Shown in pieces: positions 1 to 17,703 of a stretch of DNA of 64,000 nt. How positions within the stretch are numbered: position 1 is the first letter of the stretch; every line of letters starts with the position of its first letter. A program made the position numbers and the translations under genes. This DNA is from an uncultured Bacteroidales bacterium (GTDB lineage Bacteria > Bacteroidota > Bacteroidia > Bacteroidales > JAIOZK01). The notes beneath the pieces were generated by a model. That model saw only the letters and a list, made by a program, of their open reading frames with translations. It did not search any database and had not been told where the DNA came from. The stretch lies in contig CAYXUU010000001.1 in assembly GCA_964468645.1 (NCBI GenBank), positions 79,857-143,856 on the forward strand. The letters are read 5' to 3'.

Positions 1-535
1 CCATGTTCCTTTCTTTTAAACCAATCCCGAGGCAATCTGAAAGGCCCCAGTTTTTATTTGTCAGTTGCTGAAAGACACTTATTCTATCAGTCCCATCAGG
101 GTAATTACGTCCAACATTATCGCCTGCTATCAATATCCCACCCTCAATCACAAATTGTTTAATGTTTTCTATCTCTTTATCGCTCATATAGGTAAGCGAA
201 TAATTTCTGTCAGCATCATGATAGTCAAGAGAGGTGGAAAGAATTAGGATATTAAATTCACTCAGTCTCGAGTAATCATACAATACCTTTCTGGTCTCAA
301 GGCGAACAAAAGCCCCTTTTTTATTAAAAGACTGAATAGCAACCACGATACCCTGAGGTAACCTGGAGTGATTATCCGTTATACCGGTGGTGATAAATAA
401 TACCCTGGGTAGAAAAATATCTGAGGAAAGATCTTTGGCCGGATCTGAATCCCGGCCGTACGGCTTACAGTGTGTAAGCAATAAAAGTAAAAAACCCAGA
501 TAAATATATCTCTTTAATCTCATAAGTTTTTCCAT
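1..535 (-). CDS. hypothetical signal-peptide / lipoprotein-like protein (3' end outside window); last gene of the exopolysaccharide operon
   Basis: Own translation of the minus strand from ATG at 535 (alternative ATG at 523): MEKLMRLKRYIYLGFLLLLLTHCKPYGRDSDPAKD...VLFITTGITDNH...IEGGILIAGDNVG. The frame stays open to the window edge. It starts 19 nt after the stop of 555..3737. It is absent from the ORF track because it has no stop in the window. Confidence 0.5.
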   Translation of the reverse strand, partial: MEKLMRLKRYIYLGFLLLLLTHCKPYGRDSDPAKDLSSDIFLPRVLFITTGITDNHSRLPQGIVVAIQSFNKKGAFVRLETRKVLYDYSRLSEFNILILSTSLDYHDADRNYSLTYMSDKEIENIKQFVIEGGILIAGDNVGRNYPDGTDRISVFQQLTNKNWGLSDCLGIGLKERNM

Positions 536-554
536 ATTCATGTTTTATACAACA

Positions 555-3500
555 TCATTCTATAATTTCCATAGTTATTTCCTTACCGGGAACAACATTA
601 AATAATATGCCATTTGCCCTGTTGGTATAGGTTCCATCATTTAACGAGCCGGTTACTTTAATCAATCTGGCACCGGTTTTAAACTCAATACTCAACGGTT
701 GATCATAAACATCCCTGTCGAGCTGATTGATCACTTTAAAAAAGATATAATTCTGATATCGGTTTATTTCTATTACTGACACCTGCTTTTCTTTCAGGTA
801 TTTAAAAACAGCTGATTCCGGGGCAATCCAGAAGTCCATATTGCGGACGAGCCGCACTTGTTTTTCAAAATCAGATTTTTCCAAGAAATATTTTTCTGAT
901 ATATCCCCTGTAATGTTCCTGAATTGTAGGGAATCTTCATAAAAATGATGATAGACAAGAATCGTCCACTGATCGATATTGTTTTCCAGTAAATTATAAA
1001 GTTGTTTTTGATCAATACCGGTGTTTACCAGTGAATACCGAATCCCTGAATAAGTGTTGAGCATCTGGTTTGTTTTACAATCAGATCTTTTGAAAATTAT
1101 GGAAGATGGTAGCGGCAGCTCGAAATTATTATTTCCATGCAGATGCATTGATGTAAGAGGAGTGTTATTTCTTAATAGTGTGAAGGCGTCGGGATTAAAT
1201 GCTTGAGCGTTTTCAGGCTGAAAAGTTATTTCATTTCCTTCCTCGGAGATAGCCCTCAGTTCTTTAAGACTCAGCCTCTTCAATCTCACCCCCTCATCAT
1301 ATTCATACAAACCTGGTGATTCATCCAGGAAATCAGGAATTATACCAAAGCTGCCTTTTAGATGGTATTTTTGCAATACAGGTAGGGCCAATTGATATTG
1401 CGAATATCCGGCATTATCAAAGACCAATGATATCGCTCCCCTTTTGTTGTTATAAAAATCGGTGATTTGAATTGATTCTTCAATAATATTTTCAGGATCG
1501 TGTTGAAGAGCTGGTTTAACCTCGGCAAAATATTGCTGAAGCGTGTCATAAACAGGTTTTAACCTTGACTTATATTCCGGTATTTCCCATCCCTCCCAGA
1601 CATAGGAAAACGGACTGCTTTCGGGATACTGGTAGATAATACGATCCTCCTTATCTGTTACAAAAAGGAAAAGCTCAAAACCCGTTGTTTCTGAGAATTC
1701 AATCTCCGGTGTACCCTCAATGTCGTCAAGGACATAAATATGGGAAGGATCGCTAACATTGATCAGGTGCCAGTCGAGTCGGAGCTCAAAAGTGAAACTG
1801 GAATCATTAAAATACCAATCTGAATTTGAATGCCCGGGTAGTGAAGAATTACCATGAACCAGAAGACCGCGGTTAACCATAATGGAATCTACCCTGTCGC
1901 CGAGAAGTGTTTCCCTGCTACGGTTTGTCAAAAGAAGCTGATGTGTATATTCACCGTTATGATTTTGTTTGGAGGCATATACAGGAACGTGATCATTATA
2001 GATATCGGTAAATACCGAAAACGGTTCATCGACCAGGATCTCTGCTTCATCTTTCGACCTGAACTCCAACAGGTATTCAAAGCCATTTTCAAATTCTTTT
2101 TCTGTAAAAGGGAGCCGGTGGTCACCCTTGTCTTTATCATAAATATCAAGGGCGATATAAAGATTATTTTTCTCAAAGTTAAATTCCGGCAATACTGAAG
2201 CAAGATAAAAATAAGCCGGATCTGCTCCAGCTGAAAGTTTTATTTCATCACCTGCAGCGGTGATGTCCTGCCAGTCATCAGTTTTTCCATCCATGGTTTT
2301 AGTCCTGCTTTCAATGGCAAAGACACCAAAATTTTGCTCCGGGTTTTCCATGTTATGCCAGAGTTTTCTGTGATGGAAAGGTTGTTCAAAATCCATTACC
2401 AGCCAGTTGTGCTTAAACCACTCATCTATCCATTCGAAGTAAATAGCACCCGCACATTGTGCATCGAAGATATCCTGTGTGAGTACCAGGGACAACCCGG
2501 CCTGCTCTGCTTCTGAGTGCCCTCCCTGATCAAAACCTGTGGGTGTAACATGACTGTTTCCCCTGCTGGAAGGGATGCCATATTCAGCAATAACCAGCGG
2601 GATTCCTGGCAGATGTTCCTTTAATTCCCTGAGATAACCCAGAAAAGGATCTGATGCTCCTGTAATATTTTTTTCCCGGTTATATGATTCCTGTAAATAG
2701 ATATAATCAGGATAATACGGATAGGCATGATAGGATGCAAAAATTCCCGGTGCAAACAGAGCGGTTGTGTTAAACTTCCTGAAATCTATACTCTCCAAGT
2801 CATTATCATATTCCCTCACCTTGCTGTTTTCAATAATCTCGGTATGGTGGTACATGGGATCCAGGGGTAACCAGTTAACAAACGACATCGGATGTTGCCA
2901 TTGATATTGTTGTGTTTCGTATGATATGGCAAAATCCATCATTTCAGCCAGCCATGCTTCCATGGGATTACCATCGTTTACACAAATGAAATCACCATTG
3001 TATTGATTGTTATTATTAATAAGATTGGTATGGTGGACAGCCACAGGTTCCCATTCCCTGCCCAACAGGATACCTGCAATATATGGTGAAACATCGGAGG
3101 CATAGATTCCCGAAGCTTTTCCCCTTTCTTTTTCAAGAACAGCTTTTCCGTGAATAACATCAATAACATTGATAATTTCTTTCTGGAAATTCCGGGTATA
3201 TTCCTCATCGTAATAGTTTTCATCGGGGGGTATTTTCGCCCAGACACCCTGCATCAGATAAAGAACTTTATCCATGTGATGAAGATTATAGAATGTAAGG
3301 GCCGTATAAAATTCAGGGGGTAATATGGTATATGTTCTGATAACATTAGCATTCATCTCACCAATTAACACAAACCACTGAAGGTACTCATCAAATGACA
3401 GGGAAAATTCCGCCGGAAATTTACCTGGCATCGCAGCACCAATATTCACCCCTTTCAGGTATATATCCTCCCAGTAGTATTTGTCTTTATTAATATATTT

Positions 3501-3737
3501 ATCTGTTATTAATGACCTGAAATAATTACCGACCGCCATGAAATTATATTCAGAGGCCAATGCTTTATTTTGCAGCTTCTCAGAAGGTAATTTTGATAAC
3601 AACGGACCCGAATCATCATCAACAAATACCCGGATAATTTTTTCTTCCCTGATCGACTTTTCATATTGCATCATTTTGATTACCGTAATGACCAGTAAAG
3701 CAACAAGAAGGCTTATGATGATGTATTTGCCTTTCAT
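555..3737 (-). CDS. membrane-anchored periplasmic polysaccharide-modifying protein: N-terminal (beta/alpha)8 glycoside-hydrolase-like region plus C-terminal NodB (polysaccharide deacetylase)-like domain
   Basis: 1060-aa ORF with an N-terminal TM helix (IIISLLVALLVITVI). Clan-A-like strings are present: LKGVNIGAAMPG, VIAEYGIPSSRG, FEWIDEWFKHNW. The C-terminal stretch AISLVFDNAGYSQYQLALPVLQKYHLKGSFGII resembles NodB motif 1 and its following strand. It lies 4 nt downstream of the TPR/barrel gene. Confidence 0.7.
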   Translation of the reverse strand: MKGKYIIISLLVALLVITVIKMMQYEKSIREEKIIRVFVDDDSGPLLSKLPSEKLQNKALASEYNFMAVGNYFRSLITDKYINKDKYYWEDIYLKGVNIGAAMPGKFPAEFSLSFDEYLQWFVLIGEMNANVIRTYTILPPEFYTALTFYNLHHMDKVLYLMQGVWAKIPPDENYYDEEYTRNFQKEIINVIDVIHGKAVLEKERGKASGIYASDVSPYIAGILLGREWEPVAVHHTNLINNNNQYNGDFICVNDGNPMEAWLAEMMDFAISYETQQYQWQHPMSFVNWLPLDPMYHHTEIIENSKVREYDNDLESIDFRKFNTTALFAPGIFASYHAYPYYPDYIYLQESYNREKNITGASDPFLGYLRELKEHLPGIPLVIAEYGIPSSRGNSHVTPTGFDQGGHSEAEQAGLSLVLTQDIFDAQCAGAIYFEWIDEWFKHNWLVMDFEQPFHHRKLWHNMENPEQNFGVFAIESRTKTMDGKTDDWQDITAAGDEIKLSAGADPAYFYLASVLPEFNFEKNNLYIALDIYDKDKGDHRLPFTEKEFENGFEYLLEFRSKDEAEILVDEPFSVFTDIYNDHVPVYASKQNHNGEYTHQLLLTNRSRETLLGDRVDSIMVNRGLLVHGNSSLPGHSNSDWYFNDSSFTFELRLDWHLINVSDPSHIYVLDDIEGTPEIEFSETTGFELFLFVTDKEDRIIYQYPESSPFSYVWEGWEIPEYKSRLKPVYDTLQQYFAEVKPALQHDPENIIEESIQITDFYNNKRGAISLVFDNAGYSQYQLALPVLQKYHLKGSFGIIPDFLDESPGLYEYDEGVRLKRLSLKELRAISEEGNEITFQPENAQAFNPDAFTLLRNNTPLTSMHLHGNNNFELPLPSSIIFKRSDCKTNQMLNTYSGIRYSLVNTGIDQKQLYNLLENNIDQWTILVYHHFYEDSLQFRNITGDISEKYFLEKSDFEKQVRLVRNMDFWIAPESAVFKYLKEKQVSVIEINRYQNYIFFKVINQLDRDVYDQPLSIEFKTGARLIKVTGSLNDGTYTNRANGILFNVVPGKEITMEIIE

Positions 3738-3741
3738 AGAA

Positions 3742-5283
3742 TTATAGGTGCAATTTAATGGTCAGGTATCCTGAAATGCTTTGATAATAAGGATTATAAA
3801 ACTTATATCCGCCCAGTGAAAATGAAACTGCCTTTAGATTATATCCCAGTTCTGCAGCCAATGACCAGTTATCCACATCCATCATGGTTTTTTTAAATTT
3901 CGAACTCTGTCCCTCATCGTAGTAATATTCTGTACCAAGATTGTAGGAGAATTCACCATAAATATAAAATCTCTTCAGGGGGTAATAGGTTGTTATGGCG
4001 GCTCCGGTCAGCTTTCTTCCATAGGGTGTATAATAAAGTGGCGATTTATACTTAAAATCCATGAATGAATGATTCAACGACAGGGTTATCGATGGTTTTG
4101 AAAGCAATTTGTAACTGAGTGAAAAATTATAGGAGATATGAGGATTCTCTGCAGCTTCATATTGACCACGATAATAATCCATAATTTCTGCCTTGTTGAC
4201 AACCCCGTATAAATATCCTCCTTTGACACCGAATTTTTTGAATTTTATTGAAAGTTGATTGGAAACAGACGTGCCACCAATTCTATTCCAGTAATAGAAA
4301 TAATTGTAACCGGCAGTAATTATGTTCTCAAAAAGAAATTGTTTGATCTTGAATTTCCATTTCCAGCTGAAGCCATAACTGGAAAACTGATTATCGCTGT
4401 TGCTATACCCTGCATAGGCATTGAAATTGTGGTTGGCATTTATCCAGTTAATTTTAAGCCATGTATTGTCGTACCATCTGTTTGTATCCCCTATGTTATT
4501 AGTAAACACCCTGTTTGAATGGTCAAGAAGAAAATTTGCCGACACATTAAAATGATTGCCCAGACGTTTACTAAGACTGTATTGTTGGATAATCGCATCG
4601 ATCTGATAACTTTCCTCTTTCTCTTCAACCGGTTTTAAACTGGCAGTGAATTGGAATTTTACCTCGTTCAGGATATTGTTGAATTCTTTAAGGATCCCTT
4701 CATTGTCAGGATCCAGCTCAAGCGCTTTTTTGTAATAAGGAATAGCTGATTTTGGTTTTTGTTTCCAGTAAAGCATTTTTCCTATTCCGGCCCATGCCTC
4801 AGAATAGGAATCATCAATTTTCATGATATTGTTGTAGGTTTCAATCGCCTTATCTAGATTTCCATTCCAGCTGTACGCCAGGGCTAGATCAAAATACATG
4901 TTAATATCGCCGGGATAATAATTAATAGCCTGTTCAAAATAATAACTTGCTTTTGAAAGTTTGCCAAGCCGCAGATAACATCTCCCAAATCCATTTAAAG
5001 CCTCAACATCCTCATGGTCGTTTTTATAAATCAACGCATAAAAATGTATTGACTTTTTGTAATCTTCGATGTTGTAATATAACCTGGCAAGGGCGAGTTT
5101 AGCATCATAATCGCTACTATCTATAATCAGAACCTGCAGGTAGTCTGTTATCGATTTTTCCAGGTTGCCGTCCAGCCTGGCCTTATAGCCGGAATCACGC
5201 CAGGATTCCTTGTTGTTTTCCTGTGCCAACAAGCCGGCACCAACGGATAGTAGTAATATTATTAAACAATATTTCGTTCTCAT
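3742..5283 (-). CDS. TPR-repeat protein fused to a C-terminal outer-membrane beta-barrel (PgaA/BcsC/YaiO-like export component)
   Basis: 513 aa with a signal peptide. There are multiple TPR-like repeats at roughly aa 40-200 (e.g. AWAGIGKMLYWKQKPKSAIPYYKKALELDPDN). The C-terminal half has alternating aromatic/Gly/Ser-rich beta-strand patterns. It sits 5 nt after the GT2 gene. Confidence 0.7.
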   Translation of the reverse strand: MRTKYCLIILLLSVGAGLLAQENNKESWRDSGYKARLDGNLEKSITDYLQVLIIDSSDYDAKLALARLYYNIEDYKKSIHFYALIYKNDHEDVEALNGFGRCYLRLGKLSKASYYFEQAINYYPGDINMYFDLALAYSWNGNLDKAIETYNNIMKIDDSYSEAWAGIGKMLYWKQKPKSAIPYYKKALELDPDNEGILKEFNNILNEVKFQFTASLKPVEEKEESYQIDAIIQQYSLSKRLGNHFNVSANFLLDHSNRVFTNNIGDTNRWYDNTWLKINWINANHNFNAYAGYSNSDNQFSSYGFSWKWKFKIKQFLFENIITAGYNYFYYWNRIGGTSVSNQLSIKFKKFGVKGGYLYGVVNKAEIMDYYRGQYEAAENPHISYNFSLSYKLLSKPSITLSLNHSFMDFKYKSPLYYTPYGRKLTGAAITTYYPLKRFYIYGEFSYNLGTEYYYDEGQSSKFKKTMMDVDNWSLAAELGYNLKAVSFSLGGYKFYNPYYQSISGYLTIKLHL

Positions 5284-5288
5284 AAGAA

Positions 5289-6749
5289 TTATTCTGATTT
5301 AACCCCTTTTCTGTCAAACTTGTTCCAATCACTTTTTTTACGGAGAAATTTGATCCAACCAATAAACTGGGCATAGGTCCTAAAATAAGCATAGGAAAAA
5401 TCACTGATGACCCCCATAAACAACAACCACAACCAGTTTCCGAAAGTTTTATACCTCAGGGCATCCCTGCTGGCAGCAAGCTGATGCTGGCTCCAGTTCT
5501 CAATAAGTACTGTTATTGAACTCATAATAATAGCTGTTGTTAGGGTTACACTAACTATTAACAACAACACCCATCCCAGGTTTATTGTGCCGGCAAAACC
5601 TGCAGCAATGATAAAGAATAGGGTAATGATCTTAACTACGGGTGAAAAGAGTTCAAAAAATAAATAATATGGATAAGCAATCAGGCCGATAGTACCATAT
5701 TTGGGCTCAAAAGCAATCTCCCGGTGTATCTTCAGTGTTTCAGCCAATCCCTGGTGCCATCTTACCCTTTGTTTGTATAAATTTTGCCCGCTATCAGGCA
5801 CTTCTGTCCAGCAGATAGGCTGGGCAAGAAACCTGGCTTTGGCTTTCCTCTTGTTTTCTTTGAAATATCTCCATAACCTGACAACGACCTCCATATCTTC
5901 ACAAACGGTTTTTTTCCCCAGCCCTATGCTTTCTTTCAAATAGGGGTGTTGATTCTGTTCCGTTAAAAATCCACCAACATGGTTCAGATCTTCTTTCTTA
6001 TAAATAGAGAAAGCCCCTGACATAATCAGCAATGAATCAATTCGGCTCAGGCCTATCCTTGAAATCATAAACGATTTGATATATTCAATGATCTGCCACT
6101 GAATCCAGATGTTTCGGGGCATCCTGGAAGATACCACCTTATTATGTTTTAATACTACATCATTGGAGGCAGCAAGTTGTCCACCCGAAACAAAAATATC
6201 CGGATTTTGAATAAAAGGCAGGATAACCATTTTTAAGGCCTGGGAATCAAGAATGGAATCGGCATCGATGGTACAGACATATCTTTTTGAGGACAGATTA
6301 ATTCCTGCATTTATCGCATCTGCTTTACCACCGTTTTCCTTGTGAATTAAGAAAAGTTTATTGTTTTCATCAGTATAAATATTTCGAATGGGTTGGGTGA
6401 TCAGCGAGGGGTGATAATCAGGTTTCTTCTCATTAAGTCCAAAAGCATTCATCATAACTTCCAGGGTATTATCACCCGATCCGTCATTTACTACGATTAT
6501 TTCAAAATCTGTATAATCAATTTCAAGCAGCATTTTTATACAGGACACTATTGACACCTCTTCGTTATAAGCCGGAACAATGATGGATATAGCGTGCCGT
6601 TCAAAGTTTATCCCCTGCTTCAGGACATTGATTTTTTTTCTGAATTCATAGATTGAATACAGGTACAGGATGAAGTCAATCAGGAAATAAGCTGAAAAAT
6701 AGATGATTAGTAGTTTCTCAATTATGTTCAGAATGAAGACAAGCATCAT
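5289..6749 (-). CDS. processive family-2 glycosyltransferase, polysaccharide synthase (PgaC/IcaA/cellulose-synthase-like topology)
   Basis: 486 aa. N-terminal TM helix, then IIVPAYNEE...VVNDGSGDNT, a DAD motif (TIDADSIL), CEDMEVV, and the processive-synthase signature QRVRWHQG. Several C-terminal TM helices follow. Confidence 0.8.
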   Translation of the reverse strand: MMLVFILNIIEKLLIIYFSAYFLIDFILYLYSIYEFRKKINVLKQGINFERHAISIIVPAYNEEVSIVSCIKMLLEIDYTDFEIIVVNDGSGDNTLEVMMNAFGLNEKKPDYHPSLITQPIRNIYTDENNKLFLIHKENGGKADAINAGINLSSKRYVCTIDADSILDSQALKMVILPFIQNPDIFVSGGQLAASNDVVLKHNKVVSSRMPRNIWIQWQIIEYIKSFMISRIGLSRIDSLLIMSGAFSIYKKEDLNHVGGFLTEQNQHPYLKESIGLGKKTVCEDMEVVVRLWRYFKENKRKAKARFLAQPICWTEVPDSGQNLYKQRVRWHQGLAETLKIHREIAFEPKYGTIGLIAYPYYLFFELFSPVVKIITLFFIIAAGFAGTINLGWVLLLIVSVTLTTAIIMSSITVLIENWSQHQLAASRDALRYKTFGNWLWLLFMGVISDFSYAYFRTYAQFIGWIKFLRKKSDWNKFDRKGVKSE

Positions 6750-7059
6750 CAGGTAAATTTAGTCGGAATTAGTTGTTTGTAAAAATATAAGAATTTTCAC
6801 TTTTTACATCATTTTTGTATTTAAGTCAAAGCAAAACAAAATAGTTTTAATGTAAATATCTGGAGTTATTGATCTGATAACCCGGGATGTTAAGGATATC
6901 GACTTGTTAAAATTACGTTAATTGATAGCGTTGGCTTCCATATGTTAAAAAAGATATATATCTTAGCAAAACATTAAACAATGCAGGAGAATTAAAAAAC
7001 AGAAACAACCGCGTAGTAATTCTAATGCATGAAGCGGTTACTCACTAAAACCGAGAACA

Positions 7060-9494: not shown

Positions 9495-11591
9495 TTATTG
9501 ATTGATAACAATCTTCTTTGTGCTAATACCCCTGCTGGTTTTAATCCTCAGAAAATAAATTCCATCCGACAGATTTGATGTTTCCAAGCTTTTCTCGAAA
9601 ATTCCGGCTTCAAGATACTCTTTTTCACGATAAACAATTTCACCTGAAACATTACTGAGTGTTAGAACCAATTCATCATTCTGATCAGCATTAAAACTAA
9701 CATTCAGCTGATCTGATGCAGGCACAGGATAAACCAGCAAACCAGGGATGGTTTCACGATCTTCGATAGCTGTTATTGATGTGGAATAATGTGCTTCCCA
9801 TCCATCAGCGGTTGTAAACGAATTGGTTTTAAAAGCGATAAGCATGATGCCGCTTGATGCCACTACCGTAGAGGGTAAAGAGGAACCTGAAAAAGTAGAG
9901 ATGAGCTCCTGGTTATCATAAACTTTGACAAAATCAAGGGTTTCCTCGGTTTCGAAATAATTAAAGTTAAGGATGATATCCTTACCGGATCCGGCAACAA
10001 TTTTATAAAAACAGAGCGAACTGTTATTATAATTGAAAGTCCCACTGCCATCAGAGAACACACCTGACTCTTCGGTAAATGTTTGCATACCCGTGCAATA
10101 TTCAGGAACCATAGAATTATATTCTGCATAGAAGCCGGGACCTGTATTGCTTCCATCAGATTCAAAAGAGACGCATAAGATATTACCCGTAGAATGTATT
10201 ACCCCGGGGCTGTTGGTTCCGGAATAACTTCCATAAACCGGCGCATTGGGCCCATCCCCATCGTAAATAGTCAACACATCGTTTTCCCCGAGTTCAAATT
10301 CCTCAAAAATTAACGTTATACTGGAAACAGAATCCTGTGGTGTCTGTGGATCGATAATCCAGGTTGCACTTGTATTGTCGAGGTAATTATTAATGGGACC
10401 ACTGCCATCGGTGAAAGAGCCCGATTTTTCCGTGAGGGTTATCTGGCCATTGAAATAATACGGGTATTCAGCAGGATCAGGCTCAAGGTATCTCAGGCAT
10501 TGTTGCCAGTAATGAAACCCATTAATATCGTTCAGGGTATACCATCCGTTGCCGGTTCCGCTCCAGCCAAAGTTAAAATGATACAGATCATCCTGGTATC
10601 CATCACAAACAAAGGCATGTCCACCATTATCGGAATATCCGTAATAGGCAATCGGCCTTGCCACATCCAGTTCCGCCATTAACATTTCTTTCCATTGGTT
10701 GGTTGTGAAGTTATCTCTATTCTTATACTGCACATCCGGGTACTTGAAGAAATTCTCCATGGCATAACGGGCATCTGTTGGCCAGGCACCCGAGCCAGTA
10801 GGTGAATAATTCATGTCAACACCAACGCCTGCATGATATTGCAGTTCGCCTATCGCCCATGGATTTCTTGGGTCAATGTCGTTCTGCATGGCATTCCAGT
10901 TATAGTTTGTTGAGCCATAATCAACTGAAAGGTAGCCATAGTCGGAATAATAACCATGTGTGCCCTGCCCGGTTTCAGGATAACGCCAGTAATACATGAT
11001 CTGCGACATGGCCGTAGCAACACATCCTGCATAAACGTGGCCTCCCGATCCCTGGCTGTCCTCCGGGCACAAGATATTATAAGGATAATCCTGGTTCCAG
11101 ATATCACTCACAAGGGGCTCCACCCCTTTATTCCTGGTGGTGGATATATCAATATTCCTGTAATCATCGGTAAGATAATAATTCCATTGTTTCTCAAGAG
11201 CCCCAGAGGGGTTGTCACCCTCCTTGGCCAGAACGACATAACTGTAAAGATAACTGCCGTAGTTGGAGTTTTTATCGAAATCTACGGGAAAAGATCCATG
11301 ATGGGAATATCCAATAACCGGCAAGATCCCCCTATGTGTTGAAACGATCACAAAGCCACCATCTTCAACTTTATAAACGTTGAACCAGCTAATACCTTCT
11401 TCCTGAAAGGTATAAACAAAAGAAATGTTTACATCATTGTAATCAAGGGGAACACTGTGTTTGTTCCATTGTTCGTAAACCAGGTTTTTGGCAACTTGCT
11501 CCGATTGTGTTTGTGTAATGGACTGGGCGTTGATAATTCCGAAAGGAATTAATAGCAGGCATAATACCTGTAAAGGGAAAAGTTGTTTCAT
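9495..11591 (-). CDS. C10-family cysteine peptidase (streptopain-like) with two CUB-like domains and a T9SS type-A C-terminal sorting domain
   Basis: 698 aa with a signal peptide. Catalytic-Cys context GCVATAMSQIMYYWRYP and His context GGHAFVCDGY. Two repeated ~110-aa modules (GSFTDGSGP.NY..., GVFSDGSG.FNY...). C-terminus ...DGIYFLRIKTSRGISTKKIVINQ. Confidence 0.8.
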   Translation of the reverse strand: MKQLFPLQVLCLLLIPFGIINAQSITQTQSEQVAKNLVYEQWNKHSVPLDYNDVNISFVYTFQEEGISWFNVYKVEDGGFVIVSTHRGILPVIGYSHHGSFPVDFDKNSNYGSYLYSYVVLAKEGDNPSGALEKQWNYYLTDDYRNIDISTTRNKGVEPLVSDIWNQDYPYNILCPEDSQGSGGHVYAGCVATAMSQIMYYWRYPETGQGTHGYYSDYGYLSVDYGSTNYNWNAMQNDIDPRNPWAIGELQYHAGVGVDMNYSPTGSGAWPTDARYAMENFFKYPDVQYKNRDNFTTNQWKEMLMAELDVARPIAYYGYSDNGGHAFVCDGYQDDLYHFNFGWSGTGNGWYTLNDINGFHYWQQCLRYLEPDPAEYPYYFNGQITLTEKSGSFTDGSGPINNYLDNTSATWIIDPQTPQDSVSSITLIFEEFELGENDVLTIYDGDGPNAPVYGSYSGTNSPGVIHSTGNILCVSFESDGSNTGPGFYAEYNSMVPEYCTGMQTFTEESGVFSDGSGTFNYNNSSLCFYKIVAGSGKDIILNFNYFETEETLDFVKVYDNQELISTFSGSSLPSTVVASSGIMLIAFKTNSFTTADGWEAHYSTSITAIEDRETIPGLLVYPVPASDQLNVSFNADQNDELVLTLSNVSGEIVYREKEYLEAGIFEKSLETSNLSDGIYFLRIKTSRGISTKKIVINQ

Positions 11592-12979: not shown

Positions 12980-14779
12980 TTAACATGATGGCAAAGAAAC
13001 AAGGAAAGTGCTTCCTTTTCCCGGGGTGCTGGAAACAGAAATCTCACCACCATTTTTTGTGACAAATTCTTTACACAGGATCAATCCAAGGCCGGTACCT
13101 GTTTCATTAGCAGTTCCTTTTGTTGATTGCATTTTTTCTAAGTTAAAAAGATTCAAAATTGTTTTTTCATCCATACCAACGCCAGTGTCAGTAATTCTAA
13201 GTTTAACTTTTTCTTTGACCTGCATGACGGAAACCAGTATATGACCTCCCTGGTTGGTGAATTTAATTGCATTGGCCAGGAGATTCCTGATTATGGCCAT
13301 GATCATATTTTTATCGCCATAAATGCACAATCCAGGCTGAATTCCTATTTTTAGATCTAATTTTTTTGACTGCAAATGACCTTCAAATAAAATTTTCACC
13401 TTCTCAACCATACCCAGAACATCAATTTTAACTGGTTTAAATTTCAACTTGTTGGATTGTGAATGAGTCCATTGCAAAAGATTTTCAAGCAGTTCCAACA
13501 AAAAAACACTATCCCTGGCGAAGAGTTTAACCATTTTAAGACGCTCATTATCATTCATTGAATAATAGTCATCATGTAATAGTTCAGAAAGACCAATCAT
13601 CGTGGAAACAGGATTTCGCAGATCATGAGAAATGATGGATAAGAATTTATCTTTTGTATTATTTGCCGTTTCTGCGACATTTTTAGCCGCAATTAAATTT
13701 GATTTTACCAATAACAGATCTTCATATTGCCTGGCATTTGTGATACCCAATCCTATAACCTGGCTTATAAACTTACATAATCTTAAATAATTCTGAAGGT
13801 GTTGTTTGAACATCAGATCCTGAACCATAAGAATTCCCAGGGATTTCCCTTCATGCTTTATTAGTATGCTGAATCCGGCATCATTATTATGGATAAGATG
13901 TTCACCTGGGAATAATACCAGGTCTTTAATTTCTGATCGCTGCCTGTCATCGATGATAAGATTGCCTGATTGGTGGAAAGGGATGAAAGATACTCTTTTG
14001 GGTGCAAAAAGCGCTGTAATAATTTCCTTCGCACCTTCAATTATTTTTGATTCCGTATCAATTTCTGCCAACTGACTGATCAGGTCGAATGCCAATGCAT
14101 AATTTGAGGCAGTTTTCTTTTCCTCATTTAGCATTTGTTTTGTCTGCAATAATTCTTTTTCGTATTTCCGCTTTTCAAAATCCCTTGTAAATAAAAGCCG
14201 AAAATGATCCATGCCTACACTCATGATTTCATAAGGAAGCTTCACATATTCAGCAAATTGAACAAGGTGCGATCTCATTTCCCCACGTATGCCTGTATCC
14301 AGCAAAAGCAATTTTTTTGCAGATTCCCTGAAAAAATCTATAGCCTGTTCCCTGTTGAATTTCCAGTACTCTTCGATGTAGAACTTCCATTTAAGAAGCC
14401 ATCCCGGTGAAAGAAGATAATTTCCTTCTGAAATTAGTTGATTTATGAATGTTTTATTTATCAGCAAATCAAAACAGGTAAATTCTTGTTCTGAAGATGA
14501 GGGTGTCAGGGTATCGCCATCTGAATCTGAAAAGTTAATAAATCGGGTACAACCCACAATATAATGATTACCGTACGTTTGCTTTAATTTTTTAATTGCC
14601 CCTTTATACCTGTTATCGGATGAAATGTTGAACCTGTCGCAAACAGCAGGATGTGAATGAATTTTAATGTTAATTATTTTCTCAGAAGCAATTAATTTGT
14701 TTACTTCTTTCATATAGTTTTCACAAACGATAAGATGAAGTTTCCCTTTCATACAGGGCAAAGGTACAATCAAAACCAA
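12980..14779 (-). CDS. cytoplasmic sensor histidine kinase with N-terminal DUF1638-like domain
   Basis: 599 aa. H-box FLSIISHDLRNPV, N-box NLLANAIKFT, G1 DTGVGM, G2 GTGLGL. The N-terminal ~200 aa (LHLIVCENY...SPGWLLKWKFY...) resembles DUF1638. No TM segments. The likely true start is the MKGK codon at 14752, which avoids overlap with 14770..15810. Confidence 0.75.
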   Translation of the reverse strand: MVLIVPLPCMKGKLHLIVCENYMKEVNKLIASEKIINIKIHSHPAVCDRFNISSDNRYKGAIKKLKQTYGNHYIVGCTRFINFSDSDGDTLTPSSSEQEFTCFDLLINKTFINQLISEGNYLLSPGWLLKWKFYIEEYWKFNREQAIDFFRESAKKLLLLDTGIRGEMRSHLVQFAEYVKLPYEIMSVGMDHFRLLFTRDFEKRKYEKELLQTKQMLNEEKKTASNYALAFDLISQLAEIDTESKIIEGAKEIITALFAPKRVSFIPFHQSGNLIIDDRQRSEIKDLVLFPGEHLIHNNDAGFSILIKHEGKSLGILMVQDLMFKQHLQNYLRLCKFISQVIGLGITNARQYEDLLLVKSNLIAAKNVAETANNTKDKFLSIISHDLRNPVSTMIGLSELLHDDYYSMNDNERLKMVKLFARDSVFLLELLENLLQWTHSQSNKLKFKPVKIDVLGMVEKVKILFEGHLQSKKLDLKIGIQPGLCIYGDKNMIMAIIRNLLANAIKFTNQGGHILVSVMQVKEKVKLRITDTGVGMDEKTILNLFNLEKMQSTKGTANETGTGLGLILCKEFVTKNGGEISVSSTPGKGSTFLVSLPSC

Positions 14780-15810
14780 TTTAACGGATAAGTTCCCCAG
14801 GTTTTTACGGCTTTTGCAATGGCCCGCAGGGTTATATCCTGAACCTGGTATGGTATTTCTCCGTGATTGTCCGAAATCAATAATCCCCCACCTTTTCCGG
14901 CCTTTTGTATGATTGATTTCACCTGGTTTTCCGCCTCACGGGCCGACCAGTTAGCCATACCAATACCATTCAGATTGCCTAGAAGTGAAAATTTTCCCCG
15001 GGCTACCTGTTTTAAATCAGCCATATCTTCCAGACAACTTACCCCGACAATAGCAGTTCCGGTCTCAGCCACGTCTTTAAGAATAGGCAAACACCTGCCC
15101 GATGCAAAATGTGTTGCTGAAGGCCCTTTGATTTGTCCTAAAGTTCTTTTCGCAATTTTATAACCGGTATTCAGGTATTGTTCCCTGGTAATGATAGAGG
15201 AAGATGATACAGGATCGAAATAGCAGATTGCGGTAGCCCCGGCATTAATCTGGGCATTAGCCCATGCCACACAAAATTGCCCGTTTTTCTGCATTAATAG
15301 TTCAAAATCCGCCTGATGATAAACCATCAGTTCCAGATATTTATCGAAGCCCATTTGCATCACCGGTAATGAAAATGGTGACATTACAACTCCGATTATA
15401 GGTACAGTATCCTGAACTTCACTTTTTAATAAACCGATTGCTTTAAATACTTTTTCCAGTTCCTTGGTTTGTTCGGGGACGGGGGGGGCATAACTCCGAA
15501 TATCCTCCACTGATTTTATGAAAGGCCGGCCCGAATTTGGAGGGCCATCATTTCTGTATATTACATCCCCTCCGCATATTTCTGTCTCCAATGGTGCATA
15601 GAAGAAGGCATAAATGCAATCATTATTATATTTTCGCATCATTTTCAGCTGGCCTTCAACTATGTTCTCTGCTTTGCTGAAATAATCTTTAATGCTGATA
15701 TTAAGCGCCTTTGCCCCGTGTAATGATAGCAATAAAAATAATGGTACCTTGTCAGGCTCTTTCTGGCCCAATGCTGTGAGCACTCGTTGAAGTGAATTAT
15801 AAGTCTCCAT
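14770..15810 (-). CDS. uroporphyrinogen-decarboxylase-fold methyltransferase (MtaA/CmuA-type corrinoid methyltransferase family)
   Basis: 346 aa. URO-D family length and strings (PDKVPLFLLLSLHGA..., GATAICYFDPVSS). It lies 1 nt downstream of the corrinoid-protein gene. Confidence 0.7.
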   Translation of the reverse strand: METYNSLQRVLTALGQKEPDKVPLFLLLSLHGAKALNISIKDYFSKAENIVEGQLKMMRKYNNDCIYAFFYAPLETEICGGDVIYRNDGPPNSGRPFIKSVEDIRSYAPPVPEQTKELEKVFKAIGLLKSEVQDTVPIIGVVMSPFSLPVMQMGFDKYLELMVYHQADFELLMQKNGQFCVAWANAQINAGATAICYFDPVSSSSIITREQYLNTGYKIAKRTLGQIKGPSATHFASGRCLPILKDVAETGTAIVGVSCLEDMADLKQVARGKFSLLGNLNGIGMANWSAREAENQVKSIIQKAGKGGGLLISDNHGEIPYQVQDITLRAIAKAVKTWGTYPLNWF

Positions 15811-15811
15811 A

Positions 15812-16432
15812 TCAATAGGTTAGGTCATTTATCAAGCTAATCGCATCTGCAGGGGATTTACCCATTGCATCTGCACCAACCTGTTTCCAGAGATTATTAT
15901 CAAAATAAAACGGAGCACCACCTACAATAAGCCTGACATCAAGATGATGATCATTAAGCTTTCCCCTTAATTCCTTAATTTCAAGTGCAGAAGGATACAT
16001 TAATACCGAGACAAGTAAAATTCTTATGTTTTTATTAATGATCTCTTCGACGATCTCATCTGCGTTCAATCCATGACCAAGATCTAACAGGTTGATCCCG
16101 GATGATTTTAAAACAGCATAAATAATTTTTTTCCCCAGGATATGATAATCACCATAGGTGACAATAGCTGTTTCAGGGCCCCCGGCTGAATCCTGGTCTG
16201 ATACAGGCAGTAATTCTGTAACAAGGGATTCGCAAATCCGTCCGCTGATGTAAACCTGTGACAAGGCCACATCTCCCTTCTCCCATTTATCACCTATACT
16301 TTTTAGGGCGTTTTCTATCACATCTGCAATTACATTCCGACCATTGGCAAGAACTTTAATAAGTATTTCCTTAGCCTGAACCTCATTAAAATCAAGTAAC
16401 GCCATTTCAAATTGGCTGATCTGATCCTTCAT
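15812..16432 (-). CDS. corrinoid (cobalamin)-binding protein, MtaC/MtbC-like
   Basis: 206 aa. An N-terminal helical cap is followed by a Rossmann B12-binding domain with DxHxxG (GDYHILG), SxL (VSVLM) and GG (IVGGAPF) motifs. Confidence 0.8.
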   Translation of the reverse strand: MKDQISQFEMALLDFNEVQAKEILIKVLANGRNVIADVIENALKSIGDKWEKGDVALSQVYISGRICESLVTELLPVSDQDSAGGPETAIVTYGDYHILGKKIIYAVLKSSGINLLDLGHGLNADEIVEEIINKNIRILLVSVLMYPSALEIKELRGKLNDHHLDVRLIVGGAPFYFDNNLWKQVGADAMGKSPADAISLINDLTY

Positions 16433-16692: not shown

Positions 16693-17703
16693 ATGAAAAC
16701 AACATTAATTGCTTTATCGGCATGCATTGTATTGTTATGTGTGAATACGGGCGGCAATGCACAGGAGGTAATCTATGACAGCTACAAAATCTCAAAACCT
16801 TACACCCACAAAAACCTTACGCTGTGGTTTCTTCAGGGCGGGGACCAATTAATCTATGACAACATGCTAACACTTGAAGAAGCCCTTGAAAAGGACATTA
16901 TTAAAGTGCTTGAAACCTCAAATGTTGGCGAACTGGCCATTGAAAACAAATCCGAACATCCTGTTTTTATCCAGTCAGGTGATATTGTAAAAGGGGGGAA
17001 ACAGGACAGGGTAATCCGATACGATATCATTATCCCTCCCTGGTCTGACAGAATTCCACTGGCTTCTTTCTGTGTCGAGTATGGACGCTGGTCTCAAAGG
17101 GGGAATGAATCATATTCTGAATTCAGTGGTAGTAGTAAACGAATAGCATCAAGGGATCTGAAACTGGCAACTATCGATAAAGAATCTCAACAGGATGTCT
17201 GGGGAGAAGTGGAAGAATTGCAGGCTAAGCTTAACAGCAATATGGATGCAGCTGTAGAAAATTCGGAATCTGAATCAAGCCTTCAACTTACACTTGAAAA
17301 TGAAGAACTTGATAAATTAACCGAAGATTACACGGCTTTCTTTGGTGACTTGTTTAACAATTCAGACGATATTATTGGTTTTGTTTTTGCTATTAACGGA
17401 GAGATCAACAGTGCTGATTTTTATGGAAGTGCTCAATTATTCAGAAAAACCTGGCCAAGATTAATTGAAGCAACTTCGGTGGAGGCCATTGCCGAATATA
17501 ATAAAGGCCTACAGTACGAAACACAATCAGCAAACGAAATCAAAGATTGGCTGATAGAGGTAGAAACAGGTAAGCAATATGAAAAGCTGGCCTCTGGGAA
17601 CACAGAAATTATAATTAAGGAATCAGGGGGGAATTTTGTTTTTGAAACATATGATAAAGAGCAAAAGGGAAAATGGTTGCATAAAAGTGTGATTCGAAAA
17701 TAA
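16693..17703 (+). CDS. hypothetical secreted protein
   Basis: 336 aa with a signal peptide (ALSACIVLLCVNTGGNAQE). Good coding periodicity; no motif I can assign. Confidence 0.6.
   Translation: MKTTLIALSACIVLLCVNTGGNAQEVIYDSYKISKPYTHKNLTLWFLQGGDQLIYDNMLTLEEALEKDIIKVLETSNVGELAIENKSEHPVFIQSGDIVKGGKQDRVIRYDIIIPPWSDRIPLASFCVEYGRWSQRGNESYSEFSGSSKRIASRDLKLATIDKESQQDVWGEVEELQAKLNSNMDAAVENSESESSLQLTLENEELDKLTEDYTAFFGDLFNNSDDIIGFVFAINGEINSADFYGSAQLFRKTWPRLIEATSVEAIAEYNKGLQYETQSANEIKDWLIEVETGKQYEKLASGNTEIIIKESGGNFVFETYDKEQKGKWLHKSVIRK

Follow-up and report, generated by a model that had tools for sequence, protein, structure and literature searches.

A probable synthase-dependent exopolysaccharide operon of uncharacterised type in an uncultured Bacteroidales bacterium

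The genome of an uncultured Bacteroidales bacterium (assembly GCA_964468645.1) very probably encodes a complete four-gene operon for the synthesis and export of an exopolysaccharide by a synthase-dependent system of an uncharacterised type. The operon lies at one end of a 64,000-nucleotide stretch of contig CAYXUU010000001.1 (positions 79,857 to 143,856), which is called the window here and in which all positions without a contig label are counted. Four open reading frames (ORFs) on the minus strand follow one another head to tail and encode a glycosyltransferase family 2 (GT2) synthase, an exporter made of tetratricopeptide repeats (TPRs) and a beta-barrel, a large multidomain protein that we call BIG, and a lipoprotein that we call LIPO; related contigs and proteins carry L and P codes. 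The gaps between the genes measure 5, 4 and 13 nt, the last being 19 nt when counted from LIPO's third in-frame ATG, which agrees with the 4-19 nt claimed in a first-pass annotation of the same DNA. Several hallmarks of the Gram-negative synthase-dependent machines are found in the operon, namely the GT2 motifs, a porin with TPRs and a barrel, and a periplasmic glycoside hydrolase (GH) fold with a pair of Glu residues, whereas a cyclic di-GMP (c-di-GMP) receptor is not. The kind of system is known, but this variant of the operon and the protein family formed by the core of BIG look undescribed.

The synthase carries DGS89, DAD162, CED283 and QRVRW327-331 (nt 5757-5771), has hydrophobic segments at both the N- and the C-terminus by hydropathy, and is matched by the Pfam GT2 models (E 2e-24). 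Among the NCBIfam models, those for PgaC/IcaA (TIGR03937; E 3.5e-32, residues 125-465 on model positions 95-401 of 407) and for an XrtG-associated synthase-like glycosyltransferase (E 5e-28) are the only ones that extend over almost the full length of the protein and take in its C-terminal membrane part; the other matches cover the N-terminal GT-A half. The PgaC/IcaA score of 111.8 bits lies far below the equivalog cut-off of 422 bits, and the CelA model gives 35 bits against a cut-off of 699. Compared by BLASTP with the three synthase-type GT2 enzymes of Escherichia coli K-12, namely PgaC, BcsA and NfrB, the protein aligns with PgaC at 87 bits (24% identity, E 1e-21) over the catalytic and C-terminal membrane regions, with DGS, DxD, xED and QxxRW in register, and reaches 31.6 bits (17% identity) with BcsA and 26.6 bits with NfrB. 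This places it with the membrane-embedded processive synthases and not with the lipid-linked or non-processive GT2 enzymes. We infer from this homology that GT2 is an inner-membrane processive synthase with its own membrane channel, as had been proposed from the QRVRW motif. A beta-linked chain would be expected, given that enzymes of the GT2 family invert and take alpha-linked UDP-sugars as donors.

No PilZ or other additional domain was found in GT2 with Pfam and NCBIfam, and none of the c-di-GMP receptors covered by these models (PilZ, PgaD, PelD, Alg44, MshEN) was detected in any of the four operon proteins; neither is there an extra small PgaD-like gene in the operon, where the gaps are only 4-13 nt. 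The first-pass annotation had likewise seen neither a receptor nor a PgaD-like partner. The start of GT2 reads ATGATG (6744-6749, minus strand), and the public gene call on an identical contig takes the second ATG, giving 485 aa, so that the exact 486-aa sequence is absent from the protein collection.

The exporter is a TPR plus beta-barrel porin of the outer membrane. Its TPRs are matched by Pfam, and the barrel, which had been a guess before, is seen in an AlphaFold2 (AF2) model built with 41 homologues (pLDDT, the per-residue model confidence, 92.1) as 16 long strands between residues 211 and 512. In a Foldseek search of the PDB the first match is BcsC of E. coli (9b8h, E 1e-17; also 6tzk), followed by PelB of the PelBC complex (9h80_M, E 5e-11), and the remaining matches cover the TPRs only. 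Outer-membrane barrels end in an aromatic residue, and an aromatic C-terminal residue is the consensus of the exporter family. The PgaA equivalog model (TIGR03939) gives 20 bits against a cut-off of 367, and the protein is not assigned to PgaA by it. The first-pass reading of the operon as a synthase-dependent system is thus supported at the two points on which it could have failed, the class of the synthase and the barrel of the TPR protein.

No Pfam or NCBIfam model matches BIG above cut-off and a phmmer search of the PDB returned nothing; for the N-terminal 745 residues this holds for Pfam, NCBIfam and PDB sequences even when the family profile is used. It has roughly 2000 homologues, every one of which bears the label "hypothetical" or "polysaccharide deacetylase family". 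An AF2 model (pLDDT 80.7, predicted TM-score 0.81, 35 sequences) divides it into a hydrophobic anchor without a signal-peptidase site obvious by eye, a (beta/alpha)8 barrel, a beta-sandwich with many invariant Trp, Arg and Asn residues, a domain of the NodB or carbohydrate esterase family 4 (CE4) type, and a small terminal beta-sandwich. The first-pass annotation was right about its size, its transmembrane anchor and the order of its domains, hydrolase-like first and NodB-like last, and this order is not unprecedented, as it is the same in PelA (PMC12022489). The top Foldseek matches of the barrel are the GH157 endo-beta-1,3-glucanase 9g4n (E 2e-9), GH2 beta-glucuronidases, GH5 mannanases, the endo-laminarinase 6fcg and GH1 enzymes, all with probability 1.00, 10-15% identity and a TM-score per target of at most 0.5; the C-terminal part matches the CE4 structures 4dwe and 7ax7.

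On the model, the barrel is that of clan GH-A. The clan signature falls on the strands where it would be looked for: Arg134 lies on strand 2 and His337 on strand 6, Glu228 and Glu230 of the GREWEP motif come directly after strand 4, and Glu385 of IAEYG belongs to strand 7; by DSSP, the first two Glu residues follow the strand 220-225 and Glu385 falls within the strand 381-386. All 76 of the 76 homologues compared, which come from several phyla and have an overall identity of about 35%, keep Arg134, GREWEP, His337 and Glu385 unchanged. The candidate acid/base is thus Glu228 or Glu230 (the latter nt 3048-3050), and the candidate nucleophile Glu385 (nt 2583-2585). Because the clan residues sit at the expected strands and are invariant in the 76 homologues, we read BIG as a putatively active retaining glycosidase or transglycosylase, and its core looks like an undescribed glycoside hydrolase family. 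Three loops (residues 101-110, 290-312 and 438-467, the last at 2355-2436 on the minus strand) are highly conserved (DEWFKHNW, WHNMENPE) and yet have a pLDDT below 50; lying round the predicted active site, they may become ordered only upon binding of a substrate or a partner.

The NodB fold is supported by Foldseek and by a profile for the C-terminus of BIG, and by a sequence profile for LIPO. The BIG CE4 family profile weakly matches 6dq3, 7ax7 and the deacetylase domain of PgaB (4u10, E 0.054), and its matches are mostly N-deacetylases, PgaB among them. In both BIG and LIPO of the window, the catalytic Asp and the Asp-His-His metal triad (TFDD, HS/TxxH) are lacking. In BIG the motifs read FDNAG for FDD, with the metal Asp changed to Asn, and GNEITFQ for HExxxH, with both His residues gone, while the Arg and YHH motifs are kept. 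Since the metal ligands are lost, the domain is probably no working deacetylase: of the NodB-like modifying domain proposed in the first-pass annotation, the fold stands and the activity probably does not.

Across related cassettes the CE4 domain is found in several states. A fused CE4 with intact motifs (FDD, GHEISFHG, R, YHH) occurs in L009, L015, L021, P0049, P0051, P0109, P0111 and P0119. In L002, L003, L006, L017 and L018 a degenerate fused domain goes together with an intact stand-alone paralogue directly upstream of GT2. This paralogue consists of a CE4 domain and the same terminal beta-sandwich, is 26% identical to the C-terminus of BIG, and carries FDD, GHExxAHG, R and YHH; the alignment of BIG with the L017 copy continues to the end. 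The gene is split in L014, where a CE4 paralogue follows a truncated BIG. The window, L004, L005, L007, L008 and L010 have a degenerate CE4 only, and the 64-kb window contains no further paralogue. No O-acetyltransferase gene was found in the cluster by Pfam. CE4 modules that are fused, split, duplicated and inactivated from one cassette to the next amount to a natural experiment in the modularity of deacetylases.

The fourth gene runs past the window start, and its missing 3' end was obtained from a 16.8-kb Logan contig (L001), which was found by an exact-sequence look-up of BIG and is identical to the window across the operon. The full LIPO has 613 aa and consists of a lipoprotein signal (LLLTHC), a three-layer alpha/beta domain resembling GH42M and class I glutamine amidotransferases (GATases), a NodB-like domain and a C-terminal region. 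Pfam gives GH42M (E 3e-7), which is matched by 17 of 20 members of the LIPO family, and Polysacc_deac_1 (E 1e-3), and the family profile reaches CE4 structures with E 7e-6. The view of this gene as a flavodoxin-like lipoprotein thus survives in the lipobox Cys and in the GATase1-like three-layer alpha/beta domain, and falls short in that LIPO has a second, degenerate NodB-like domain outside the window. That domain reads TLNS, is without the His motif and keeps FRFPY; the same pattern, with TFDD changed to [TS]xN, holds for 19 of 20 family members. On these motifs it is probably inactive, but further conserved acidic residues (E443, D450 and D451) leave room for a non-canonical site. The lipobox Cys is present in the Bacteroidota copies except L016. 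LIPO of L011, L012, L013, L014 and L016 (Ignavibacteria and Cloacimonadota, with L016 from an uncultured Bacteroidia) has no lipobox Cys and a plain hydrophobic N-terminus, so the mode of membrane attachment varies by lineage.

A pattern scan of one genome per species gave at least 600 candidate stretches; of the 600 examined, at least 595 encode a relative of BIG. The full cassette occurs in the same order in Bacteroidales, Flavobacteriales, Saprospiraceae, Salinivirgaceae, Ignavibacteria and Cloacimonadota, and is complete but reordered in WOR-3 (LIPO, GT2, TPR, BIG). Co-occurrence was counted by tblastn at loci flanked by 5 kb or more on both sides, as simple ORF calling proved unreliable in high-GC loci, where it yields spurious antisense ORFs. 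All four genes are present at 8 of 8 such loci from the FCB group (Bacteroidota, Ignavibacteria, Cloacimonadota and relatives) and WOR-3, and the arrangement is therefore far beyond chance. In other phyla GT2 lies within 10 kb at 10 of 29 loci and a TPR match at 15 of 29. The homologues of BIG from Gemmatimonadota, Longimicrobium, Eisenbacteria, Vulcanimicrobiota, Polarisedimenticolia and one cyanobacterium end at about residue 740 and have no CE4; LIPO is absent from Gemmatimonadota and those other non-FCB lineages, in which a TPR protein usually adjoins the core.

Gene fusions provide a second line of evidence. An exhaustive HMMER search with BIG residues 60-745 returned 1445 clusters at 50% identity, 554 of them with E below 1e-30. 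The architectures of the best 148 representatives are the core alone (82), an N-terminal domain of 350-420 aa of unknown type followed by the core (22), core and CE4 (16), TPRs and core (13), core and a C-terminal extension of unknown type (8), core and TPRs (6), and GT2 and core (1). In the single GT2-core fusion, P0344, the GT2 part shares 34% identity with the window enzyme across 432 residues (E 6e-81); P0344 also passes the Pfam chitin-synthase cut-off. In P0277, P0311 and P0337 the core is followed by C-terminal TPRs and then by a strand-rich region ending in ...WIF or ...WAF, and the exporter family profile aligns by hhalign with residues 921-1186 of P0311, which comprise the TPRs and the first strands of the barrel (probability 97.7%, E 2e-12). 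TPRs are fused to the N-terminal side of the core in P0256, P0260, P0267 and P0287, among others. Judged by these sequences, the fusions physically link the core with both synthase and porin.

The N-terminal domain of 350-420 aa (P0274, P0276, P0293, P0294, P0312, P0315 and 16 others) has the motifs DKTVP, REHKGL, LIYxADTYGVY, AEFNT and WTGWIGRY and no Pfam match. The idea that it is a relative of the N-terminal domain of LIPO was dropped, as hhalign gave a probability of 6.9%.

These observations suggest how the machine might work. To judge by its homology to PgaC-type enzymes, GT2 would polymerise a UDP-sugar at the cytoplasmic face and thread the beta-linked chain through its own membrane channel. 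BIG, held to the inner membrane by one helix, would take over the chain in the periplasm, where its GH-A barrel may cut or trim it as do BcsZ, the C-terminal domain of PgaB, the N-terminal domain of PelA and AlgL. The fused CE4 would ancestrally be a metal-dependent de-N-acetylase, and an intact CE4 module would still remove N-acetyl groups from the chain in relatives; here both CE4-like domains would most likely only bind or guide the chain and, as neither has metal ligands, the polymer would exit largely unmodified. LIPO, lipid-anchored to a membrane, would then contact the chain together with the TPR domain and pass it to the 16-strand barrel for export. Because there is no c-di-GMP receptor, control would be transcriptional or of some other kind.

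As the first-pass annotation had cautioned, the identity of the polymer cannot be inferred from the sequence alone. We tentatively propose, with somewhat less than even confidence, a beta-linked N-acetylhexosamine polymer that is PNAG-like (resembling poly-N-acetylglucosamine) or chitin-like, because PgaC and IcaA are the nearest synthases, P0344 clears the Pfam cut-off for chitin synthases, CE4 domains of the N-deacetylase type are kept in many cassettes, and no O-acetyltransferase is encoded. The alternative that holds up best, though still unlikely, is that the product is a neutral beta-glucan with beta-1,3, beta-1,6 or mixed linkages and that the CE4-like domains are carbohydrate-binding relics or O-deacetylases. 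The best structural matches of the barrel, a GH157 endo-beta-1,3-glucanase and the laminarinase 6fcg, point in this direction, and so do the missing metal site in both CE4-like domains of this genome and the core devoid of any CE4 in Gemmatimonadota. Fold-level GH-A matches at 12% identity are, however, a poor guide to substrate, and GT2 scores much higher with PgaC (87 bits) than with BcsA (31.6 bits), with the fused relative P0344 above the chitin-synthase cut-off. Moreover, an intact CE4 is maintained in many cassettes, with the fused and the stand-alone forms complementary to each other, which is hard to explain for an unacetylated glucan, and there is no acetyltransferase gene to make O-acetyl groups.

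Rather more improbable is a second alternative, which concerns the role of BIG and not the product: BIG may act not as a degradative hydrolase but as a transglycosylase or a non-catalytic chaperone, with a part in shaping, branching or anchoring the polymer, in the manner of the glucanosyltransferases with a GH-A fold. Retaining GH-A enzymes are indeed capable of transglycosylation, the acid/base Glu lacks its canonical preceding Asn, BIG is tethered at the membrane of the synthase and in P0344 fused to it, and a large conserved beta-sandwich with many invariant Trp residues is present. The invariance of both Glu residues fits catalysis of either kind, and sequence does not discriminate between the two; what speaks for a hydrolase is the well-established point that the characterised synthase-dependent systems all carry a true hydrolase or lyase (PMC7112194, PMC12022489).

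It is distinctly improbable that the cluster is a divergent but genuine Pga operon, in which GT2 would be PgaC, the TPR-barrel protein PgaA and BIG a rearranged PgaB, with poly-beta-1,6-GlcNAc as the product. Such an assignment would account for PgaC/IcaA being the best-scoring characterised relative of GT2, for the reach of the CE4 profile to the PgaB deacetylase domain 4u10 (E 0.054), and for the same set of functions, that is, synthase, TPR-porin, deacetylase and hydrolase. Against this, the scores are 111.8 rather than 422 bits for PgaC and 20 rather than 367 for PgaA, neither PgaB nor PgaA is matched by BLAST, and PgaD is missing. BIG, furthermore, has a GH-A barrel instead of GH153, the reverse domain order, an inner-membrane anchor where PgaB is a lipoprotein, and deacetylase motifs that are lost in this genome. 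That the cluster serves polysaccharide utilisation or cell-wall remodelling and not secretion is scarcely credible: GH-like and CE4-like domains are common in degradative loci of Bacteroidota, but there is no SusC/SusD pair or other transporter, a synthase-type GT2 with QxxRW heads the operon, the barrel matches the export porins BcsC and PelB, and in relatives the core is fused to synthase and porin.

Several points weigh against the proposed reading of the operon as a machine for secreting an N-acetylhexosamine polymer. Both CE4-like domains are degenerate here and no intact CE4 paralogue was found elsewhere in the 64-kb window, so the argument from deacetylases holds for the family and not necessarily for this genome. 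Many lineages have no CE4 at all, and the barrel resembles known families at the fold level only, with beta-1,3-glucanases as the best; both disfavour an N-acetylhexosamine polymer. The Asn that usually precedes the acid/base Glu of clan GH-A is missing from BIG (R-E-W-E-P). The role of LIPO is the least supported step of the proposed mechanism, GT2 does not always adjoin the core outside the FCB group, and the close relatives are all metagenomic.

With the same reserve as for the polymer, we speculate that the cassette is a distinct, phylum-spanning class of synthase-dependent system, the first for Bacteroidota and the FCB group and reaching Gemmatimonadota, in which the obligatory periplasmic part is a new clan GH-A family specific for its own, possibly new, polymer and fusible to synthase or porin, and in which the paired loss and retention of CE4 tunes deacetylation. 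Nearly all that is known of the well-studied synthase-dependent polymers (cellulose, PNAG, Pel and alginate) comes from Proteobacteria and Firmicutes, and a large operon survey of 2020 leaves Bacteroidetes unmentioned (PMC7112194). No prior description of the cassette was found in the literature searched, whose coverage was incomplete and offers no proof of novelty. With the cassette, Bacteroidota, Ignavibacteria, Cloacimonadota, Marinimicrobia, WOR-3, Gemmatimonadota and others would gain a machine of this kind. Sediments, soils and sludge harbour many of the carriers in abundance, and in these habitats aggregation and carbon storage are driven by matrix polymers. The enzyme family is also large, lacks annotation and has a clear catalytic signature, and offers a direct target for CAZy-type work and perhaps for finding enzymes that degrade biological matrices.

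The surroundings of the operon set its limits. Beyond LIPO, L001 encodes PorZ, RecO, LplA/B and LipA, which are unrelated to it, and the divergent genes upstream of GT2 include those for a small ORF product without a Pfam match, a tRNA_anti-like protein, YceI, DUF5777 and a C10 peptidase that ends in a type IX secretion system (T9SS) sorting domain. The T9SS components around the operon point to a host from the Bacteroidota. As the neighbours on both sides are unrelated, the unit is the four genes. Their GC content is the same as that of the surroundings, and an Rfam scan of the window gave no RNA elements. The positions of the operon features and of the stand-alone CE4 paralogues are collected in Table 1.

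Table 1. Positions of the operon genes, their predicted domains and related CE4 genes (window positions unless a contig is named)
Feature	Position	Strand	Details
Divergent intergenic region upstream of the GT2 gene	6750-7059	.	presumed operon promoter region, by position only
GT2 synthase	5289-6749	-	486 aa
Exporter (TPR/barrel)	3742-5283	-	513 aa
Exporter domains	within 3742-5283	-	signal peptide; ~5 TPRs, residues 25-208; 16-strand beta-barrel, residues 211-512
BIG	555-3737	-	1060 aa; predicted inner-membrane-anchored periplasmic multidomain protein
BIG signal-anchor, residues 5-23	3669-3725	-	hydropathy 2.59; AF2 continuous helix residues 2-32
BIG predicted clan GH-A-type (beta/alpha)8 domain, residues ~90-478	2304-3470	-	Foldseek, AF2/DSSP
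BIG beta-sandwich, residues ~480-745	1503-2300	-	AF2 all-beta; part of the core in all phyla
BIG NodB/CE4-like domain, residues ~755-985	783-1475	-	Foldseek, family profile
BIG C-terminal beta-sandwich, residues ~988-1060	558-776	-	AF2 strands 988-1058
LIPO, 5' part	1-541	-	180 codons; start at 541, continues past the window start
LIPO, full gene	L001:7642-9483		613 aa
Stand-alone CE4 paralogue	L002:6048-7124
Stand-alone CE4 paralogue	L003:5910-6989
Stand-alone CE4 paralogue	L017:2784-3857
Stand-alone CE4 paralogue	L018:2432-3514
Stand-alone CE4 paralogue	L006:144-1037
Stand-alone CE4 paralogue	L014:12336-13265

Three other parts of the window are worth recording in their own right. At 9495-11591 on the minus strand lies the gene of a 698-aa protein with a Spi inhibitor-like prodomain, a C10 (streptopain/PrtT-type) peptidase, two CUB domains, which are rare among bacteria, and a T9SS C-terminal sorting domain. 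An adjacent trio at 12980-16432 on the minus strand encodes a histidine kinase with DUF1638, a URO-D-like (MtaA/CmuA-type) protein and a B12-binding corrinoid protein; together the three resemble a corrinoid-dependent methyltransferase module equipped with a sensor of its own. At 16693-17703 on the plus strand is the gene of a protein with an ARPP-1 domain (ARG and Rhodanese-Phosphatase-superfamily-associated protein, E 2e-57).

Compared with known systems, the operon works like the Pga, Bcs and Pel machines and belongs to none of them. By BLASTP, no significant match of BIG, the exporter or LIPO was obtained with PgaA, PgaB, PgaD, BcsB, BcsZ, NfrA or YbcH of E. coli. The likeness to Pga lies in PgaC as the nearest characterised synthase, in a porin with TPRs and 16 strands, and in a periplasmic partner that joins a NodB-type domain to a GH domain. 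All three proteins nevertheless stay far below the family cut-offs, and the partner differs in having GH-A and not GH153, the hydrolase before the NodB domain, and a transmembrane in place of a lipid anchor. The operon is also without PgaD and c-di-GMP control, contains an extra 613-aa lipoprotein, and has degenerate NodB motifs.

The resemblance to Pel is of a different sort. In PelA, as in BIG, the hydrolase comes first, the deacetylase later and then a beta-rich domain, and PelB is a TPR-porin that matches the exporter in structure (9h80, E 5e-11); an outer-membrane lipoprotein takes part in the Pel system as well. The middle alpha/beta domain of PelA resembles ThuA, PhzE and IFT52 and folds of the GATase type (PMC12022489), and the order of LIPO, with a GATase-like alpha/beta, a NodB-like and a C-terminal part, recalls the last three domains of PelA, a likeness drawn by Pfam clan and by the description in that paper only. 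Unlike the operon here, which has a GT2 and would make a beta-linked product, Pel uses the GT4 enzyme PelF with PelD, PelE and PelG to make an alpha-1,4-GalNAc polymer; PelC is a small protein that forms a 12-mer ring, unlike LIPO, and the functions are here split over two proteins. The PelA families GH166 and CE21 were not detected by sequence and profile searches of the PDB, and the 50 best fold matches of BIG do not include PelA.

Bcs provides the closest structural relative of the exporter, BcsC (E 1e-17), along with a QxxRW GT2 and a hydrolase encoded in the operon. BcsC has many more TPRs than the roughly five of the exporter. The operon, in contrast to Bcs, has no PilZ domain, no homologue of BcsB and a synthase with 17% identity to BcsA, and Bcs has no counterpart of the CE4 domain.

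Finally, the barrel of BIG can be set against clan GH-A itself. PslG (GH39) is a transmembrane-anchored GH-A enzyme of an exopolysaccharide pathway, and CcsZ belongs to GH5 and hence to the same clan. The clostridial Ccs variant of cellulose synthesis, with its hydrolase CcsZ, is thus a precedent for a clan GH-A hydrolase in a synthase operon (PMC7710045). BIG shares with the clan the (beta/alpha)8 barrel, the Glu after strand 4, the Glu on strand 7, the Arg on strand 2, a His or Tyr on strand 6, and a beta-sandwich that follows. It departs from the clan in that it belongs by sequence to no Pfam, NCBIfam or PDB family and has R-E-W-E-P for N-E-P, and in that its core is fused, according to lineage, to CE4, TPR, porin or GT2 modules.

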